From an uncultured Gammaproteobacteria bacterium (lineage in GTDB: Bacteria > Patescibacteriota > Patescibacteriia > UBA1558 > GWA2-36-10), in contig CAZWYP010000005.1 in NCBI GenBank assembly GCA_964638415.1, forward strand, positions 4,121-68,120: a stretch of DNA of 64,000 bases. Reading direction: 5' to 3'. The translations under genes and the position numbers were made by a program. The notes beneath the pieces were generated by a model. The model searched no databases, was not told where the DNA came from, and saw nothing but the letters and a program-made list of their open reading frames with translations. Shown here one piece after another: positions 1,900 to 36,420 of the stretch (its first letter is position 1; every line of letters starts with the position of its first letter).

Positions 1900-2889
1900 C
1901 TAATTATATTCTCCGATGACATTAGCCATCATCTTATGATAAAAATCTTCGCGGCTATCGCTATTGGACAAAGCCCACATGGTTTTAACAATCGCGGTCG
2001 GCCAAGTGCAACCAAAAATTACCGGAATCTCCTGATCCGGCAGAAAATCTGCTCGGGCATAAATAGCTACCGGCAATTTAGCTTTGCGCAATAAGGCAAA
2101 TTTTTCTTTGGGCAGATCCGCAGAATTAACTTTAACTAATATTCCTTGGTATTTGCTAAGATCAACAGCTGTCCAGTCTAGCGATGAGCCGACAAAATCT
2201 TCAATGATTAATAAATTACTGTCAATTTTGTTATATACTTTTGGTTCCTTGAGAGAAAATTTCAAATTAGTCTTCAAACTAATACCAAAATCCACCTTGC
2301 CCCAGTAATTATCATCCACACTAGTAAAAACATTAGTACCATTCTGATTCTGCCAAATGGCTTTAACTCCCCACAACAGAGAATTACCGAACATAATCGC
2401 TGGCGCCGGCAAAGGCTGGCCGGCAATCTGCAGAGCATTAACTAAATTCGCTCTTAAACCCAAGCCCTTACGCTCTTTAATAAACTTAGATAATTGCTCT
2501 TTCTTGGTGGCCAAATAATTGCCGGACATCTGTGATCCCGTCACCACGATACTCACTGGGAAATCCTGCAAGAGAAAATTCAAAGCTAAAGAGGTATTAA
2601 CTATCTGCTCCGGCTTAGTGACAATAATAAATCCGGAAAATTCAGTTTGATGCTCTCTAATAAATTTAGCCTGCTGCTGCCAAGTCTTTGGGGATAATTC
2701 CGCTGTTTCCGGAGCAATAACCATAACCTGCAATTCACCTAAAATATTCAACTCCGGCATGGTTTTCAGCCAAGGCTCAACATCCTTAGCTTCATTAACC
2801 ATAAACAAAGCATCGTCCTTGTCAGTTGTCCAAGTACCGCCAGATAATAACAAAGCTATTTTTTTCTTGCTTTTAGGCATTATTAGCAA
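1900..2889 (-). CDS. asparaginase/GatD-like domain protein (probably not a canonical asparaginase)
   Basis: N-terminal LLSGGTW resembles the TGGTIAG nucleophile motif of L-asparaginases, but the second catalytic HGTDT motif is absent. 4-nt gap to the downstream gene (operon). Confidence 0.3.
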   Translation of the reverse strand: MLIMPKSKKKIALLLSGGTWTTDKDDALFMVNEAKDVEPWLKTMPELNILGELQVMVIAPETAELSPKTWQQQAKFIREHQTEFSGFIIVTKPEQIVNTSLALNFLLQDFPVSIVVTGSQMSGNYLATKKEQLSKFIKERKGLGLRANLVNALQIAGQPLPAPAIMFGNSLLWGVKAIWQNQNGTNVFTSVDDNYWGKVDFGISLKTNLKFSLKEPKVYNKIDSNLLIIEDFVGSSLDWTAVDLSKYQGILVKVNSADLPKEKFALLRKAKLPVAIYARADFLPDQEIPVIFGCTWPTAIVKTMWALSNSDSREDFYHKMMANVIGEYN

Positions 2890-2908
2890 TATTTATAAGC
2901 CGTCTTTC

Positions 2909-3059
2909 TCTATCGCCGTCTTTATTTTTATCCTAATAAATATACAATAATTTGTCAATTACCTATAAAAAGCCTTTAAAAAAGCTGTTGACAAGTTTTT
3001 TATAAATGATATATTAAAAATATAAACATTGCCGTCAATTGTGTTTAGACGGCGATAGA
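2909..3059. repeat. Perfect 13-bp inverted repeat (tctatcgccgtct / agacggcgataga) flanking a consensus promoter; extra GCCGTC half-sites at ~2899 and ~3031
   Basis: Read directly: 2909-2921 and 3047-3059 are exact reverse complements 125 bp apart. The GCCGTC hexamer recurs four times in this region. Confidence 0.55.
2988..3015 (+). promoter_or_regulatory. Strong sigma70-type promoter (TTGACA - 16 nt - TGaTATATT extended -10)
   Basis: TTGACA at 2988-2993 and TGnTATATT at 3007-3015. It points at the DUF397 gene, leaving a ~270-nt leader. Confidence 0.5.
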
Positions 3060-3289
3060 ATGTTCTTTTCACCACACTCTACTCAACACTCTCTAATGAA
3101 TTCTCCAAAAAACCATGAGGCGAAAATGAGAATAGTCACTATACTCGAGGGAATTTTTTTAATGTGGTCAGATAACCCTCGCTGGCCAAAAGATTACGGT
3201 CATCACGACTAACGACCGAACACACCTAAAAACGTGTCGGTAATTTTCATCAACCGCCAATAATTTATTGGCAGAAAGTGTTAAGTAGT

Positions 3290-3556
3290 ATGAACAGCAA
3301 CGGACAAAATCCCCCAATGGAGTTCGGTGTACAACCCGACGACAAGCAAGAATTGCGCAAAATTCAGTTTGCAGAAACTGACTTCGTGAAGGCCAGGCAA
3401 ACTCTAATGCGCAGAGTGTGTGTTCAGGTCGCGCGGAAAGAAGGCGCCGTCGCTGTCCGCGATTCCAAAGATGAATCACGGACGACTCTCCTGTTCAGCA
3501 ACGAGGAGTGGAAAGTTTTTGTCGAAGGCGTGAAAGCAGGTGAATTCGACGTATAA
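3290..3556 (+). CDS. DUF397 domain protein (Actinobacteria-type AbaA/BldB-like small protein)
   Basis: C-terminal VAVRDSKDESRTTLLFSNEEWKVFVEGVKAGEFD matches the DUF397 consensus (VAVRDSKdP.GP.L.F....W.AFv.gVK.GEFD); upstream CVQVA resembles the CVEVA motif. GC visibly higher (~50%) than neighbours. The track start at 3278 is GTG; the first ATG is at 3290. Confidence 0.6.
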   Translation: MNSNGQNPPMEFGVQPDDKQELRKIQFAETDFVKARQTLMRRVCVQVARKEGAVAVRDSKDESRTTLLFSNEEWKVFVEGVKAGEFDV

Positions 3557-3594
3557 ATCAATACGTCGATTAACCACATCTCACGCACGCAAAT

Positions 3595-3630
3595 CTGTGG
3601 GTAAAATATAATTTTTGCCCACTTTTTTTT
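3595..3630 (+). terminator. Rho-independent terminator (hairpin gtggg...cccac followed by T8)
   Basis: ctgtgggtaaaatataatttttgcccac followed by tttttttt, directly after the DUF397 ORF. Confidence 0.55.
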
Positions 3631-3658
3631 AAAAAAATTATATGTTAAAATATTAATT

Positions 3659-4393
3659 ATGGAAAAAAATATTAAAATTAAAATTTCAAAAAAACTATCA
3701 ATATACGGAAAGTTTAATGGATCATACAAACAACCTCTCTTTATAATTATCCACGGCTTAACTGGTAATATGGATGAGGAACTTTACCAATCAGCAACTC
3801 ACTGGTTTAGAAAAAATGGTTTTTCAACATTCCGCTTTAATTTATACTCCTACCAAAAAGATGCTAGGCAACTTATGAATTGCACTCTAAAAACCCACAG
3901 TAAAGATTTAGATAAGATAGTCAATTATTTTAAAAATAAGGGTGTACAAAATATATTTATCGCCGGACATAGTTTTGGTGGTCCAGTAATATTAGGCTCA
4001 AAAAAACAAAACTTCAATGCCGCCGTACTTTGGGATCCGACTTACAAAATATCTTTCATAAAAAAAGCTTATGGATTTCCAAAAGGAAAATATGTCAAGG
4101 AATTAAAAGCGTATATTACGAAATGGGGAGTTAATTTTGTTATAAGCAGAGCAATGGCAAAAGAAGTAGAGTCTTTTCCTCAGTCTTTAGCAGTAAAAGA
4201 ATTTAATATTCCCTTTCAAATAATCCTAGCCGGCGCTGGTGTACTACATCAGGCTAAAAAATATCTAAGGGGTGTAAAAGTTGAACATGATTTAATAATT
4301 ATAAAAAACGCGACTCATTATTTTAATGATACAAAAGATATGCGTAAAAAAGTTTTTAGATACTCAATGGAATGGTTTAAAAAATTTATGTGA
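3659..4393 (+). CDS. alpha/beta hydrolase (dienelactone hydrolase/esterase-like)
   Basis: IIIHGLTGN oxyanion region and IAGHSFGG nucleophile elbow. Confidence 0.65.
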   Translation: MEKNIKIKISKKLSIYGKFNGSYKQPLFIIIHGLTGNMDEELYQSATHWFRKNGFSTFRFNLYSYQKDARQLMNCTLKTHSKDLDKIVNYFKNKGVQNIFIAGHSFGGPVILGSKKQNFNAAVLWDPTYKISFIKKAYGFPKGKYVKELKAYITKWGVNFVISRAMAKEVESFPQSLAVKEFNIPFQIILAGAGVLHQAKKYLRGVKVEHDLIIIKNATHYFNDTKDMRKKVFRYSMEWFKKFM

Positions 4394-4484
4394 ATCAATA
4401 TTATTTTAAGATAAATAGAATAGTAATTATGTATTATTTATAATAAAAAAACTGAGTAAAAACATAAAAACCATATTATCCATA

Positions 4485-4889
4485 TTGCAGGATGAAGTGA
4501 ATGGAGATGCTAAATCTGCCTTAGCTAAGCTTGCTAAAGATTACTCAATGACCTGGGTATATCAAGGTAGGAAAACACTATTTCCAAAAACTTTCAAGAA
4601 TATTAAGAAAGAATTATCTCAAACATATCATATCAAGGGAAGAAAATATGAGATATTTAACATTGCAGAAAACAAAGATGCTGTCATGTTAGAATTAGTG
4701 GAAAGTTATCCTGATCCAAAAAATAAAAAAATTTATCGCACACCATTGGTTTTAGTATTGGAAATGGAGAAGGGTAAAATAAAAACTGGCCGGCATTATT
4801 GTGACCCCAGGCTTTCTTTTATGTATTTAAACCAAAACCAAATAAAAAAAGCACTGAAAAATAAAAAACCAATATTAACAATAAAATAG
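4485..4889 (+). CDS. hypothetical protein (possibly NTF2/SnoaL-like fold)
   Basis: 134-aa ORF with no recognisable catalytic motif. Confidence 0.35.
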   Translation: MQDEVNGDAKSALAKLAKDYSMTWVYQGRKTLFPKTFKNIKKELSQTYHIKGRKYEIFNIAENKDAVMLELVESYPDPKNKKIYRTPLVLVLEMEKGKIKTGRHYCDPRLSFMYLNQNQIKKALKNKKPILTIK

Positions 4890-4912: not shown

Positions 4913-6295
4913 AATCCTCATTTTCACTGCTTTTTGTCCTTCTTTAGTATCTTGTACTGCTATCCCCTGTCCAGCTAAATCTTCCCTTAATTTATCCGCT
5001 AATTCCCAATTTTTCTCATTCTTAGCCTTTAGGCGCTGAACTAATAATTCCTGTGCTTCCGCAGGTAACATTAAGGCCTGCTCCCGCAATATTTTCAAAT
5101 TCAAGCCCAAAACTTCATCCATTCGGTAAATAGTAGCCAGCTTCCGGCTGCTATCCATATCCAAAGCTATGGTTTCCTGCAATACTGCCAAAGCTTTGGC
5201 AATGTTCAAATCATCAGCTAAAGCATTATTAAACTTATCCAGCTGTTCAGTTATTATTTCTCCCGGTTCATTATACCAAACAATTTCACCGACAATACTA
5301 GTTAACCCGGCAACAGCAGCGGCTAAAGCTTCCCAAGTGAAATTCATCGGCTTGCGGTAATGCGTCTGCAATACTAAATAACGGTAAGCTAAGGGAGAAA
5401 GCTTCTTTGCCTGCAAATCCTGCAGAGTAATAAAGCTGCCGAGAGATTTTGACATCTTGCCATCCATGAATTTCACAAAATCATTATGCAGCCAATACCG
5501 AGCCTGCACTTTGCCAGTCACCGCTTGGCTTTGCGCCATCTCATTGGGATGATGGATAGTTAAGTGATCCACGCCGCCGGTATGAATGTCAAAGGTATCT
5601 CCTAAATTTAATCGGCTAATAACCGAACACTCTAAATGCCAACCGGGAAAACCCTTGCCCCATGGCGAATCCCATTCCATATCCCGCTGCGGACTATTAG
5701 CTGGAGAAAATTTCCAAACCGCAAAATCTGCCGGATGCTTTTTTTCCGGATTAACTGCCACCCTAGCCCCAGCTTGAATCTGCACTTGACCTAAATTAGC
5801 CAACCGGCCATAATCTGCTGATTTAGCCGTGTCAAAATAAAGGCCGTCCGCTAATCGGTAAAGAAATCCCTTACTTTCCAATTCTTTGACAAAGTCTATT
5901 TGCTCTTTGATGCAAGCGGTGGCTCGGACAAATTTAGTCGGCGGCAGAATATTAAGCTCCTGCAAGCCATCCTGAAAAACTTTAATAAAAAAGTCGGCAA
6001 TCGCCCAAGCATCTTTACCGGTACGCTGACTAGCTAGCTGCATCTTATCTTCGCCATCATCGGCATCTGAGGTTAAATGGCCGACATCGGTAATATTCAT
6101 AATATGATTAACTGCATAGCCTTGGCTTGATAAGAATCTTTTCAGCACATCCCAGACAATATATGCCCGCCAATTCCCGATATGAGGGTAATCATAAACA
6201 GTAGGTCCACAGCTATATAAACCAACTTGCCCGGATTTTAACGGAGCAAATTCCTCTTTTTGCTTGCTTAAGCTGTTAGTTAAGTATATTTTCAC
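4910..6295 (-). CDS. cysS: cysteine--tRNA ligase
   Basis: Class I motifs PHIGN and KMSKS; CGPTVYD; zinc ligands. Start is GTG by the track. Confidence 0.9.
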   Translation of the reverse strand: MKIYLTNSLSKQKEEFAPLKSGQVGLYSCGPTVYDYPHIGNWRAYIVWDVLKRFLSSQGYAVNHIMNITDVGHLTSDADDGEDKMQLASQRTGKDAWAIADFFIKVFQDGLQELNILPPTKFVRATACIKEQIDFVKELESKGFLYRLADGLYFDTAKSADYGRLANLGQVQIQAGARVAVNPEKKHPADFAVWKFSPANSPQRDMEWDSPWGKGFPGWHLECSVISRLNLGDTFDIHTGGVDHLTIHHPNEMAQSQAVTGKVQARYWLHNDFVKFMDGKMSKSLGSFITLQDLQAKKLSPLAYRYLVLQTHYRKPMNFTWEALAAAVAGLTSIVGEIVWYNEPGEIITEQLDKFNNALADDLNIAKALAVLQETIALDMDSSRKLATIYRMDEVLGLNLKILREQALMLPAEAQELLVQRLKAKNEKNWELADKLREDLAGQGIAVQDTKEGQKAVKMRI

Positions 6296-8695: not shown

Positions 8696-9088
8696 TCAAG
8701 CCGCTTGGTGTAATAGTCTCTGCACCGAATCAAAGAATTCGACAAGCCTAAAAGGCTTAACCAGCATCAGGTCTGGAGTCTCTTCCGGTGGACGCTTGCG
8801 CACCTCCCAAGGCTTGCCGGTCATCAAGATGGTTCGGATAGAAGGATATAATGCCTTAATTTCGGCAATGGCATCATCACCGTTTTTTCCAGGCATATGG
8901 CAATCCGAAACTACCAGCTCAACTGGATGTTCAGAAACCAATTGGCACAATTCCTCTCCATTAGAAACTTTGCCAATTTCATTATCCGTTAAACCGATAT
9001 TAGCCTGTAGAAGAATCTTCGCCACCAGTTCTCGGGATGGTTCATCGTCATCAGCTACTATGACTCGGAATTTTTTTTCCGTCTCCAT
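8696..9088 (-). CDS. single-domain response regulator (CheY-like receiver only)
   Basis: VIVADDD acidic pocket, phospho-acceptor Asp in LVVSDCHMPGKNG, and conserved T/K (ILMTGK...KP). ATG at 9088 with an AAAGG RBS is preferred over the GTG at 9115. Hairpin plus T-run terminator at ~8644-8680. Confidence 0.65.
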   Translation of the reverse strand: METEKKFRVIVADDDEPSRELVAKILLQANIGLTDNEIGKVSNGEELCQLVSEHPVELVVSDCHMPGKNGDDAIAEIKALYPSIRTILMTGKPWEVRKRPPEETPDLMLVKPFRLVEFFDSVQRLLHQAA

Positions 9089-9229
9089 GATCTGCCTTTC
9101 TATTGAAAATAACACAAATTATTAGGAATATACCATAAAAAAATGATTCTGTCAATCCTTGTATATAAAAAGAAGCCCCTAACAAGTATGGAACTTGCTA
9201 GGGACTTGGGGCGATCTGACGCGGGAGAG

Positions 9230-12204: not shown

Positions 12205-13254
12205 ATGATAGATATTAATAAAATAAAGCAAGAAATAGCTGAACTGGAAGACAAGATGCAACAGCCGGAAGTAGTCAAAGACACTCAGCAGATGAGCAAA
12301 CTTGGCAAGCAATACAATAAAGCCAAGGAGATTTTAAATTTAGCGGAAAGCTTGGAAAAAAATAAGGCGGAATTGGCCGGTTTGAAAGAAATGTCAATTA
12401 AGGAAACTGATCCGGAAATGGCCAGCCTGACTTTGGGTGAAATTGAAGATTTGGAAAAAAGAATTGCTGAACAGGAAAGTAAGTTGGATGACTTACTTAA
12501 TCCAGCTGATCCGGCCGATGAAAGAAATGTCATTTTGGAAATCCGGGCCGGTACTGGCGGTGATGAATCTGCTTTGTTTGCCGCTGATTTGTTCCGCATG
12601 TACGCCCGTTTTGCCGAAAACCAAAACTGGCAAGTAAAAGTTATTTCACAGAATCGCACGGAAATCGGTGGCTTCAAAGAAATTATCGCCGAAGTCTCCG
12701 GAGACAATGTGTATAAATATTTCAAATTTGAAAGCGGTGTCCATCGCGTCCAGCGCGTGCCGGAAACGGAAAAAGCCGGCCGCGTGCATACTTCAGCAGC
12801 CACCGTAGCAGTAATGCCGGAAGCTGAGGAAATAGATTTAAAAATCGAGCCAAAAGATTTAAAAATTGAAACCACTACTTCATCAGGACATGGCGGACAG
12901 TCAGTCAACACCACTTATTCAGCGGTCCGCATTACTCACTTACCCACTGGACTAATGGTGCAATGCCAGGATGAACGCTCCCAAACTCAGAATAAAGAAC
13001 GGGCCATGCAGGTTTTACGCTCACGGTTACTAGCTATGGAAGAAGAGAAAAAACACCAGGAACGGGCTGCCAACCGCAAAAGCCAGATTGGCACCGGCGA
13101 TCGTTCGGAAAAAATCCGTACTTACAATTTCCCTCAGGACAGGTTAACTGATCACCGCGTTAAACTTACTTTGCATAATTTAGCCAAAATCTTAGATGGT
13201 GACCTTTTGCCGATTATCACTCCCTTGCAGCAAGCCGCCAAAGAAATCAAATAA
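12205..13254 (+). CDS. prfA: peptide chain release factor 1
   Basis: GGQ motif ([12 protein letters not shown]). The tripeptide recognition loop reads RVQRVPETE (P-E-T at the PxT position). Confidence 0.9.
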
Positions 13255-35862: not shown

Positions 35863-36420
35863 TTAAATTTGCCTTAATTTTCCCCTGATTTTCCGGTAGT
35901 CCGGCATGGTTCTGGCCACCAGCTGCCAGAATCCCCGCCCATGATTCATTTCCTGCAAATGGCATAATTCATGGACAATAATGTAATCAGATAAGGCTGG
36001 GGGTAATAAGCATAAGCGGCAGTTAAAATTAAGGTTCTTATTCTTAGAACAACTGCCCCAGCGGGTTGACTGGTTGCGCACAGTAATTTTTCTATAGCTG
36101 AAATTATAGAACTGATTAAAAAATAATAAACGCTCTCTTACCAAAGTATCGGTTAAAGCTTTTAATTTCTTAATCTCACTTAAGGAAAAACGGCGGGAAA
36201 AAATACTTTGCTGGCTAGCGATTTTTTGCCAATTAGCCAATAACCATTCCTGTTTTTGACTAATAAACCTTTGGATTAAATAAAGCGGAAAATATTTAGG
36301 CGCTGATACTAAAATATCCCCATTCTTCTTAATAGCTAAGCGCAAATGGCGATTACCTGCTCGCCTGTTTAATTTATAGGTTAAAACCAGCGGTCCTAAT
36401 TTTATCTTCTTCTCCAGCAT
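35863..36420 (-). CDS. YgjP-like metal-dependent hydrolase (DUF45, M48-related)
   Basis: WGSCS...HELCHL (HExxH) motif typical of DUF45. Confidence 0.6.
   Translation of the reverse strand: MLEKKIKLGPLVLTYKLNRRAGNRHLRLAIKKNGDILVSAPKYFPLYLIQRFISQKQEWLLANWQKIASQQSIFSRRFSLSEIKKLKALTDTLVRERLLFFNQFYNFSYRKITVRNQSTRWGSCSKNKNLNFNCRLCLLPPALSDYIIVHELCHLQEMNHGRGFWQLVARTMPDYRKIRGKLRQI

Follow-up and report, generated by a model that had tools for sequence, protein, structure and literature searches.

The 64-kb window analysed here (the whole stretch of DNA, to which all coordinates refer) carries at 2899-3640 a small gene of the DUF397 family, with a strong promoter and a terminator of its own. Where does this gene come from, and with which partner does its product act? 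A preliminary description of the sequence saw in it a horizontally acquired regulatory cassette, conceivably from an actinobacterial host. Our results point elsewhere: the region would be the DUF397 half of a two-gene module of Patescibacteria (the candidate phyla radiation, CPR), whose other half would be the esterase gene at 3659-4393. We give a probability of about 60% to this reading, in which the DUF397-esterase module is CPR-specific and the DUF397 protein is a small protein-binding partner of the hydrolase.

A Patescibacteria branch of the DUF397 family

Membership of the DUF397 family, as first described, is borne out by a Pfam match to PF04149 (44.3 bits against a cut-off of 24 bits, E = 2.1e-11). 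The open reading frame (ORF) is real too, although its length of 89 aa probably does not stand: the true start is probably the ATG at 3317, giving 79 aa, because one gene caller uses this codon and the N-termini of homologues align there. The NCBI annotation starts at 3290 (88 aa). The 20 best homologues found by a word-indexed protein search are 53-70% identical and 67-87 aa long; all of them are metagenomic and all carry PF04149. Twenty residues are invariant among homologues, most of which also possess, before the canonical domain, a CPR-specific N-terminal extension (DDKxELRKIxFxDxDF). Pairwise identity among homologues amounts to 0.81, 0.86 and 0.47 at the three codon positions. The gene is therefore under purifying selection on its protein, and it is intact.

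An AlphaFold2 model (pLDDT 74.6) has a bridge at residues 33-34, strands at 45-50, 53-58 and 66-70 and a helix at 71-80. The predicted fold is thus a beta-meander with a C-terminal helix, in keeping with the four beta-strands and terminal alpha-helix that characterize the family. Kaur et al. (2020, PMC7159879) describe two motifs of DUF397, a CxE located in strand 2 and an RDS where strand 3 ends. Both the Cys and the RDS (as VRDSKD) are invariant in our sequences, while the Glu of CxE is Gln in the window protein (CVQVA) and Met in most of its subfamily; other CPR members retain CVEVA. An antisense ORF of 103 aa (3168-3479) was rejected: it arises from the high GC of the coding strand, and the apparent homologues are the antisense of DUF397 genes.

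A scan of GTDB species genomes returned more than 535 relatives, the best of them in Patescibacteria (recorded as Saccharibacteria, Taylorbacteria, Paceibacterota, Parcubacteria, Nomurabacteria and Yanofskybacteria). The closest homologues, with 60-70% identity over the full length, all come from Patescibacteria or metagenome contigs. Streptosporangiaceae and other Actinomycetota rank next, mostly through the C-terminal ~45 residues (50-62% identity), with longer alignments at 35-45%. In a neighbour-joining tree of 54 domain columns, CPR sequences (including that of the window) stand apart from actinobacterial ones and the nearest neighbour of each CPR sequence is another CPR sequence; as the tree has no bootstrap and was sampled with a bias toward the query, it shows a tendency rather than a resolved phylogeny. 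Phage and plasmid collections yielded only actinobacterial DUF397 sequences, all below 50% identity: actinobacterial plasmids and one actinophage carry copies 35-49% identical to the window protein.

By far the greatest abundance of DUF397 is in Actinomycetota (PMC2701414), as also in our genome scan, and the family has been described as present "only in actinobacteria" (PMC7159879). The preliminary description likewise took the family as almost restricted to that phylum. The GTDB matches contradict this view, which is out of date with respect to current genome data; the literature we searched contained no paper linking DUF397 to Patescibacteria. Homologues also occur in two gammaproteobacterial metagenome-assembled genomes (MAGs), one of them of Endozoicomonas (L015 and L025 among the loci introduced below), and the family therefore extends beyond Actinomycetota and Patescibacteria. 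Moreover, the product of 3317-3553 matches phrog_10815 (unknown function, E = 9e-13), so that DUF397-domain proteins exist in phages; the phage collection yielded a single match, to Saccharomonospora phage PIS 136 (C-terminal domain, 49% identity).

As a whole, the window is a stretch of ordinary CPR chromosome from a compact genome of ~40% GC, with genes for EF-Ts, S2, L31, L25, RF1, FtsW, threonyl-tRNA synthetase (ThrRS), GatA/B, ThyA, Tmk, IF3, transfer-messenger RNA (tmRNA) and type IV pilus components. Its ThrRS is closest to that of Nomurabacteria (67%), followed by Komeilibacteria, Uhrbacteria, Paceibacterota and Wolfebacteria, and no Saccharibacteria appear among the named ThrRS matches. 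By its ThrRS, the host would be nearer to CPR of Parcubacteria type than to the Saccharibacteria-like epibiont considered earlier.

A serine esterase gene beside DUF397

The gene that follows DUF397 (Table 1) has only weak Pfam matches, to DLH and Hydrolase_4. Its AlphaFold2 model (pLDDT 93) retrieves with Foldseek, as top matches, cinnamoyl/feruloyl esterases, the TTL (thermophilic) lipase and monoglyceride lipases (TM ~0.8, E = 1e-15). Across 35 sequences, GHSxGG (here GHSFGG, with S105), H220 and D83/D85/D126 are invariant. Judged by its modelled fold, its GxSxG motif and its conserved Asp and His, the predicted product has the features of an alpha/beta-hydrolase serine esterase. An NCBIfam search gave no specific match for any of three genes, DUF397, the esterase and the adjacent 134-aa gene.

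We fetched more than 100 related loci (designated by L-numbers), with 18 named CPR genomes. Esterase orthologues 57-68% identical to that of the window adjoin DUF397 in L083/84, L085, L089, L090, L092-095, L097, L100, L101 and L104/105 (the last annotated as Brennerbacteria), so that the adjacency is found in ~16 close relatives, in both gene orders and with unrelated flanking genes. In L096, L005, L011 and L029, what comes after DUF397 is a more distant member of this hydrolase family, and in L011 the stop and start codons of the two genes overlap. In addition, a second, minimal hydrolase family (138-197 aa) with a C-terminal His and an invariant GFSxG is found immediately 3' of DUF397 in L008, L010, L014, L017, L023, L048 and L028. 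The two families are distantly related (hhalign probability 86%), and the L011 protein matches both profiles.

Among the 3063 ORFs of all fetched loci, every match to either hydrolase profile is directly beside DUF397. In the named CPR genomes, a hydrolase occupies 9 of the 18 slots downstream of DUF397, compared with none of 105 other genes (Fisher test, p = 4e-9), and L028 raises the number of genomes with a hydrolase next to DUF397 to 10 of 18. The two genes also diverge together: pairwise identities of DUF397 and of hydrolase are correlated (Spearman 0.90 overall and 0.79 within the subfamily; Mantel p = 0.002).

Other neighbours were observed as well. In L086, L087, L098 and L099, DUF397 belongs to a sister branch that has PAYPF inserted ahead of the conserved Cys, and is always tail-to-tail with an S9 prolyl-oligopeptidase gene (~690-740 aa), whose product is also an alpha/beta-fold serine hydrolase. 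L016, a Patescibacteria MAG, is the only multi-copy CPR locus seen, with tandem DUF397 genes (4983-5198 and 5282-5494) followed by a HAD-family hydrolase. In L061, another Patescibacteria MAG, DUF397 (4986-5210) lies 150 nt 3' of a tmRNA gene (4459-4836), and this locus has counterparts for the window's SmpB-like gene and IF3 homologue beside tmRNA. Genes for tmRNA are a classic integration hotspot. In 18 related loci, Rfam identified no RNA other than tmRNA and tRNAs, and the tmRNA gene itself accounts for the long gap that precedes DUF397 in L061.

Three alpha/beta-hydrolase genes occur in the 64 kb of this reduced genome (548-1354, 3659-4393 and 24229-24993), only the middle one being paired with DUF397. 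The esterase and the next gene (134 aa, no family match; 3659-4889 together) have the lowest GC of all window genes (0.305 and 0.309, mean 0.408), and the L104 esterase is at 0.327 in a locus at 0.479. These values hint that the pair, or the esterase, came from lower-GC CPR relatives.

Absence of an XRE partner

In actinobacteria the situation is different. A hidden Markov model (HMM) built from actinobacterial XRE/DUF5753 genes identifies the gene immediately upstream of DUF397 in 46 of 60 actinobacterial loci. The same HMM detects nothing among window ORFs of at least 35 aa (best E = 1.4), as the preliminary description had anticipated, and nothing in 26 CPR or metagenome loci. The DUF397 protein BldB has no DNA-binding activity and forms oligomers with its paralogues, and canonical bldB is unlinked to whiJ/abaA paralogues (PMC10294661).

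A high GC content common to CPR DUF397 genes

The preliminary description noted an ORF GC of ~50%, above that of its surroundings, and read this as a sign of acquisition. The measurement is confirmed: DUF397 has a GC of 0.504 and a third-position GC (GC3) of 0.55, at the top of the window (window genes: 0.408 +/- 0.041 GC and 0.403 +/- 0.073 GC3). The reading is not. Among 33 CPR or metagenome loci, DUF397 GC3 exceeds the mean of the neighbouring genes in 26 and every single neighbour in 25, with a mean excess of +0.15 (Wilcoxon p = 5e-6). CPR DUF397 genes mostly have ~0.45-0.55 GC (range 0.32-0.62; GC3 up to 0.77) in host loci at 0.29-0.58, and the co-inherited hydrolase gene next to them is at or below the GC of its host. 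As third positions are saturated (0.47 identity), the composition of DUF397 must be maintained rather than inherited. High GC is thus a property of the whole set of CPR DUF397 genes and no scar of a transfer.

Codon bias of highly expressed genes was considered as a cause of the high GC3 and rejected, the S2, L31, L25 and EF-Ts genes of the window having a GC3 of only 0.38-0.45. Synonymous-codon shuffles provide a lead toward selection on mRNA structure or stability: DUF397 mRNAs have a mean z of -1.21 (n = 30, eight of them below -2), compared with -0.29 for 56 control segments from neighbouring genes (Mann-Whitney U test, p = 0.002). The value for the window gene is only -0.57.

Transcription of the two genes

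In the window as in L090, L095 and L104, the same elements come in the same order: a TTGACA-type promoter, DUF397, an intrinsic terminator, a (T)ATGTTAAAAT box and the esterase. The -35 element is TTGACA in L090 and L104 and TTGACT in L095, and the terminator lies at an equivalent place in all three. The box is situated 7-14 nt 5' of the esterase start codon (MEKN...; window 3640-3661, L090 2390-2416, L095 4365-4392, L104 2478-2503). The position of TGTTAAAAT implies a very short or absent 5' untranslated region for the predicted esterase transcript. With a terminator and a putative esterase promoter between them, the genes would therefore be transcribed separately rather than together, and of the two promoters that of DUF397 is the stronger. 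It is also the best promoter-like site within 2600-4000, and places the predicted transcription start near 3022. The clean terminator of the preliminary description is confirmed by its stem, T8 tract and z-score (Table 1). The "self-contained cassette" holds as far as promoter and terminator are concerned, but a conserved neighbour gene makes it less than fully self-contained.

Table 1. Features of the DUF397 locus and its immediate surroundings (window coordinates).
Feature	Position	Strand	Remarks
Divergent neighbour, asparaginase/GatD-like protein	1900-2889	-	far under equivalog cut-offs
Direct GCCGTC pair, GCCGTCTTT x2, 16 bp apart	2899-2904 and 2915-2920	+	5' region of the divergent asparaginase-like gene
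Left arm of 13-bp inverted repeat, TCTATCGCCGTCT	2909-2921	.	repeat scan
Weaker divergent promoter-like site, TTGACA-17-TAGGAT	2958 down to 2930	-	10/12, consensus match alone; faces asparaginase-like gene
Near-consensus sigma-70 promoter, extended -10	TTGACA 2988-2993, 16-nt spacer, TG 3007-3008, TATATT 3010-3015	+	11/12 plus TG
Leader, ~295 nt, lineage-specific, without Shine-Dalgarno	3022-3316	+	from predicted start (~3022) to ATG 3317
Palindrome GCCGTC-N11-GACGGC	3028-3056	+	candidate DNA operator just 3' of start site; 5'-proximal RNA hairpin
Right arm of 13-bp inverted repeat, AGACGGCGATAGA	3047-3059	.	repeat scan
DUF397 small-protein gene, 79 aa	3317-3556	+	alternative starts 3290, 3278
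Intrinsic terminator, 10-pair stem and T8	3597-3630 (stem 3597-3622)	+	-14.1 kcal/mol, z = -5.5
Extended -10 box TGTTAAAAT of esterase gene	3643-3651	+	conserved in relatives; putative promoter
Partner gene, 244-aa alpha/beta-fold serine esterase/lipase	3659-4393	+	Est1E/monoglyceride-lipase-like

The DUF397 leader was earlier described as long, GC-rich and containing several hairpins. Length and hairpins are confirmed (the whole leader folds with z = -3.35 relative to shuffled controls), but its GC is only 0.40, equal to the genome mean and above that of spacers (0.31 +/- 0.08). No other truly non-coding gap in the window is as long, the median spacer being 105 nt. A 50-codon upstream ORF lies within the leader (3060-3212), its AUG directly abutted by the 13-mer box described below. 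Queried as 3039-3209, this ORF has no homologue in 1.84 billion representative proteins, apart from one spurious match to a repeat protein. Rfam 15, a scan already suggested by the preliminary description, gave no leader match in a search of the whole window at gathering score and, for 2850-3700 at E <= 10, only four weak and unrelated matches, none relevant in the leader. No similarity to the leader was found by blastn and tblastx in the fetched loci or the rest of the window, and no terminator was found within it. The leaders of L090, L095 and L104 are ~50-100 nt long with a GGAGG Shine-Dalgarno. In the window at large, Shine-Dalgarno-like motifs precede only 14 of 57 genes, and many genes have a TATAAT-like box immediately 5' of their ATG (for example at 12205, 22871, 35863-36420 and 44200), which suggests from sequence that leaderless or short-leader mRNAs are widespread in this organism.

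GCCGTC boxes and divergent promoters

The perfect 13-bp inverted repeat that was reported around a strong promoter is present, as is the promoter. Its arms, whose centres are 138 bp apart (~13 helical turns), enclose a 125-bp segment holding both divergent promoters; the search for more copies of TCTATCGCCGTCT recommended earlier found no other exact one in the 64-kb window. Two of four GCCGTC boxes lie inside the repeat, and all four fall within 155 bp of sequence at just 23% GC. The direct pair is the single such arrangement in 64 kb (0.02 expected), and GCCGTC-N11-GACGGC, formed by the inverted pair at 3031 (+) and 3048 (-), is likewise the single match in the window (0.01 expected). As RNA, the inverted pair can fold into a hairpin of -12.8 kcal/mol (z = -3.43). 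The cluster is thus non-random, in line with the half-sites already noted, and the operator then proposed keeps its status of something that could be.

With one box pair just 3' of its predicted start site, either transcript would begin with AGACGGCGAUAGA. The boxes are most likely, judging by their arrangement, operator sites through which one regulator controls DUF397 and the divergent asparaginase-like gene, and sharing this promoter region may lead to co-regulation of the two. Looping between the identical 13-mers is possible, and the downstream pair, as a hairpin, may stabilise the 5' end of the mRNA. A Pfam scan of ~45 window proteins found no helix-turn-helix (HTH) regulator or recombinase, and the sole regulator-type match was an isolated response-regulator receiver (8696-9112). 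The inverted repeats that occur close to promoters of other DUF397 genes are of unrelated sequence.

Window-wide, GCCGTC occurs 24 times (10.5 +/- 3.2 expected), with 20 of the 24 copies on the plus strand. This excess probably reflects codon usage (GAC-GGC and similar) of genes located mainly on the minus strand, and only the intergenic cluster at 2899-3053 is conspicuous within the window. The repeat was also considered as a miniature inverted-repeat transposable element with a target-site duplication, and rejected: the flanks GTCTTTC and ATGTTCTTTT form no clean duplication and the window contains no other copies.

A model for the DUF397-esterase module and its alternatives

Under the reading that we favour, the near-consensus sigma-70 promoter would drive DUF397 and the strong intrinsic terminator would end its transcript, while the esterase would be transcribed from its own conserved extended -10 box. 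Actinobacterial DUF397 works with a partner protein, the XRE/DUF5753 regulator, and the adjacent hydrolase would take that place here: made in excess, DUF397 would bind and modulate it as a regulatory or inhibitory subunit. A regulator would act at the GCCGTC boxes around the divergent promoters, on both DUF397 and the asparaginase-like gene. Binding or gating of the hydrolase by DUF397, and the direction in which one protein would act on the other, are suggested by gene linkage, by correlated divergence and by analogy to BldB and to XRE-DUF397 pairs, which act without DNA binding by DUF397 and depend on partners (PMC10294661, PMC10364602, PMC6262351).

Several observations weigh against this reading. 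Hydrolase orthologues at 50-54% and at 37% identity have no adjacent DUF397, and in 8 of the 18 named CPR loci DUF397 is found in other contexts (PheS/T, RuvA, a pyridoxal-phosphate enzyme, tmRNA). Within the subfamily, a terminator and a separate promoter split the two genes. The window locus is itself peculiar: its DUF397 is the most divergent subfamily member in the neighbour-joining tree, and its 295-nt leader without Shine-Dalgarno has no counterpart in relatives. Finally, the GCCGTC boxes were not found upstream of any homologue, nor was a cognate regulator for them found among the ~45 window proteins scanned with Pfam.

Some of these observations are what one would expect if DUF397 were an orphan of BldB type acting in trans on an unlinked partner, its adjacency to the hydrolase reflecting shared history or regulation. 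Canonical bldB offers a precedent for such unlinked action, the two genes have separate transcription signals, and 8 of 18 named CPR DUF397 genes lack a hydrolase neighbour. We nevertheless hold this to be unlikely, as at least two distantly related hydrolase families and an S9 peptidase recur beside DUF397, the linkage persists through inversion of gene order and full turnover of the flanks, and both genes diverge in a correlated way. The same linkage could also reflect a toxin-antitoxin-like, addiction or conflict module in which one product is harmful and the other neutralising, which would explain its spread among CPR. The pair is compact, occurs in variable contexts and both gene orders, and has its small gene first with the stronger promoter; the hydrolase GC below that of the host locus (window and L104) hints at transfer of the pair; and DUF397 has been predicted to be a toxin (PMC2701414, PMC7159879). 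But 14 DUF397 proteins proved non-toxic in Streptomyces coelicolor (PMC10364602), the search for a type II context found neither an HTH or ribbon-helix-helix partner nor a PADLOC match, and no mobile-element genes are nearby. The identity of the pair (~60-68%) is similar to that of ThrRS to its nearest relatives (67%), which fits vertical descent, and such a module appears improbable.

Recent acquisition of the cassette from an actinobacterial host, with its high GC as a remnant of the donor, was the explanation put forward in the preliminary description. It could draw on the highest gene GC in the window, on the prevalence of DUF397 in Actinomycetota and on its presence in actinobacterial plasmids and one actinophage. 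However, the best actinobacterial, plasmid and phage matches reach only 35-62%, the highest of them over the C-terminal domain alone, while CPR homologues are 60-70% identical over their full length, cluster by themselves, and share a CPR-specific N-terminal extension and partner gene. GC3 is equally raised in most of them in spite of saturated third positions, and ThrRS also places the host nearest to Nomurabacteria and other Parcubacteria-type CPR. The preliminary description had taken closest homologues in related CPR genomes as the outcome that would count against an import, and that is where they are. Since the gene belongs to a Patescibacteria branch travelling with a serine esterase, it is not a recent actinobacterial import, an origin to which we give hardly any weight. 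As little weight goes to the inverted repeats as recombination sites of an invertible promoter, a phase switch directing strong transcription to either DUF397 or the asparaginase-like gene. Perfect 13-bp repeats around a 125-bp promoter-bearing segment would suit such a switch, but with a promoter facing each way a flip would turn nothing on or off. Moreover, no recombinase is found among the ~45 scanned proteins, two independent assemblies have the same orientation, and the boxes extending beyond the repeat suit an operator better. The leader might, for its part, be a cis-regulatory RNA (riboswitch-like or leader-peptide) or an independent small RNA, controlling DUF397 translation. As the longest non-coding gap of a compact genome, with a gene-like GC, a stable predicted fold, no Shine-Dalgarno before the ORF and a 13-mer abutting the AUG of the upstream ORF, it invites this interpretation. 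It matches nothing in Rfam, though, no homologous sequence was found anywhere, short Shine-Dalgarno leaders suffice in relatives, the upstream ORF has no homologue and no internal terminator was detected; we regard such a role as rather unlikely.

The DUF397-esterase module can be placed in a wider and more tentative picture, for which we would claim less than an even chance. Rather than an accessory of actinobacterial developmental regulators, DUF397 would be an ancient portable module docking on varied partners, whose ancestral partner in Patescibacteria would be a serine esterase/lipase gated by it, possibly for scavenging of lipids or host-derived esters. Selection on mRNA would keep DUF397 near 50% GC even where the genome is AT-rich, in agreement with the excess of predicted structure reported above (mean z of -1.21 vs -0.29).

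Significance

Decades of work on DUF397/BldB in the development and antibiotic regulation of Streptomyces have, to our knowledge, yielded no biochemical mechanism. What is new here is a known family with a different partner (a serine esterase), in a different phylum and with an unexplained compositional signature. A large separate branch in Patescibacteria, with one copy per locus, no XRE and a recurrent enzyme neighbour, recasts the question as that of a generic effect of the fold on a partner protein. Such a branch moreover provides a far simpler system of two proteins, where esterase activity with and without the 79-aa protein would be an easy read-out. The conserved, uncharacterised pair joins the very few regulatory candidates of the ultra-small CPR genomes, and a lasting GC3 excess beside a co-inherited AT-rich neighbour makes a clean natural case of gene-specific selection on composition.

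Comparison with known systems

The closest known relatives are the XRE-DUF397 pairs of Actinomycetota, in which the XRE protein is WhiJ-like with DUF5753 (Scr1/Scr2, WhiJ9/BldB9, BldB). The window protein shares with them PF04149, a size within 65-90 aa, a conserved C..V, the RDS of VRDSKD and a tail of the form EW..F..GVK.GEFD, as well as predicted beta-strands followed by a C-terminal helix, and it probably acts likewise through protein-protein contacts rather than DNA binding. It differs from them in that no XRE/DUF5753 gene is adjacent or in the window, the place of partner falling to a putative serine hydrolase, and in that DUF397 is the first gene of the pair instead of the second. The host belongs to Patescibacteria instead of Actinomycetota, with one copy per locus, compared with a median of 26 per actinomycete strain. 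Within the protein, the Glu of CxE is Gln or Met in this subfamily and the N-terminal DDKxELRK segment is extra.

The type II toxin-antitoxin system predicted for DUF397-Xre (Makarova et al. 2009) is similar in being a compact two-gene DUF397 module that occurs in varying genomic surroundings. An HTH antitoxin is absent here, however, and the second gene encodes a predicted esterase/lipase-type enzyme; no DUF397 protein is known to be toxic. The esterase for its part resembles the Est1E and LJ0536 cinnamoyl-feruloyl esterases and bacterial monoglyceride lipases in modelled structure (TM ~0.8), GxSxG elbow, conserved His and size (~245 aa), but is only 15-21% identical to them, and the characterised enzymes have no DUF397 neighbour. 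Prophage morons, finally, also combine a strong promoter and a terminator of their own with a composition unlike that of their surroundings. Unlike them, the DUF397 gene lies outside a prophage, has an atypical composition common to its homologues in many genomes, and is co-inherited with its neighbour.

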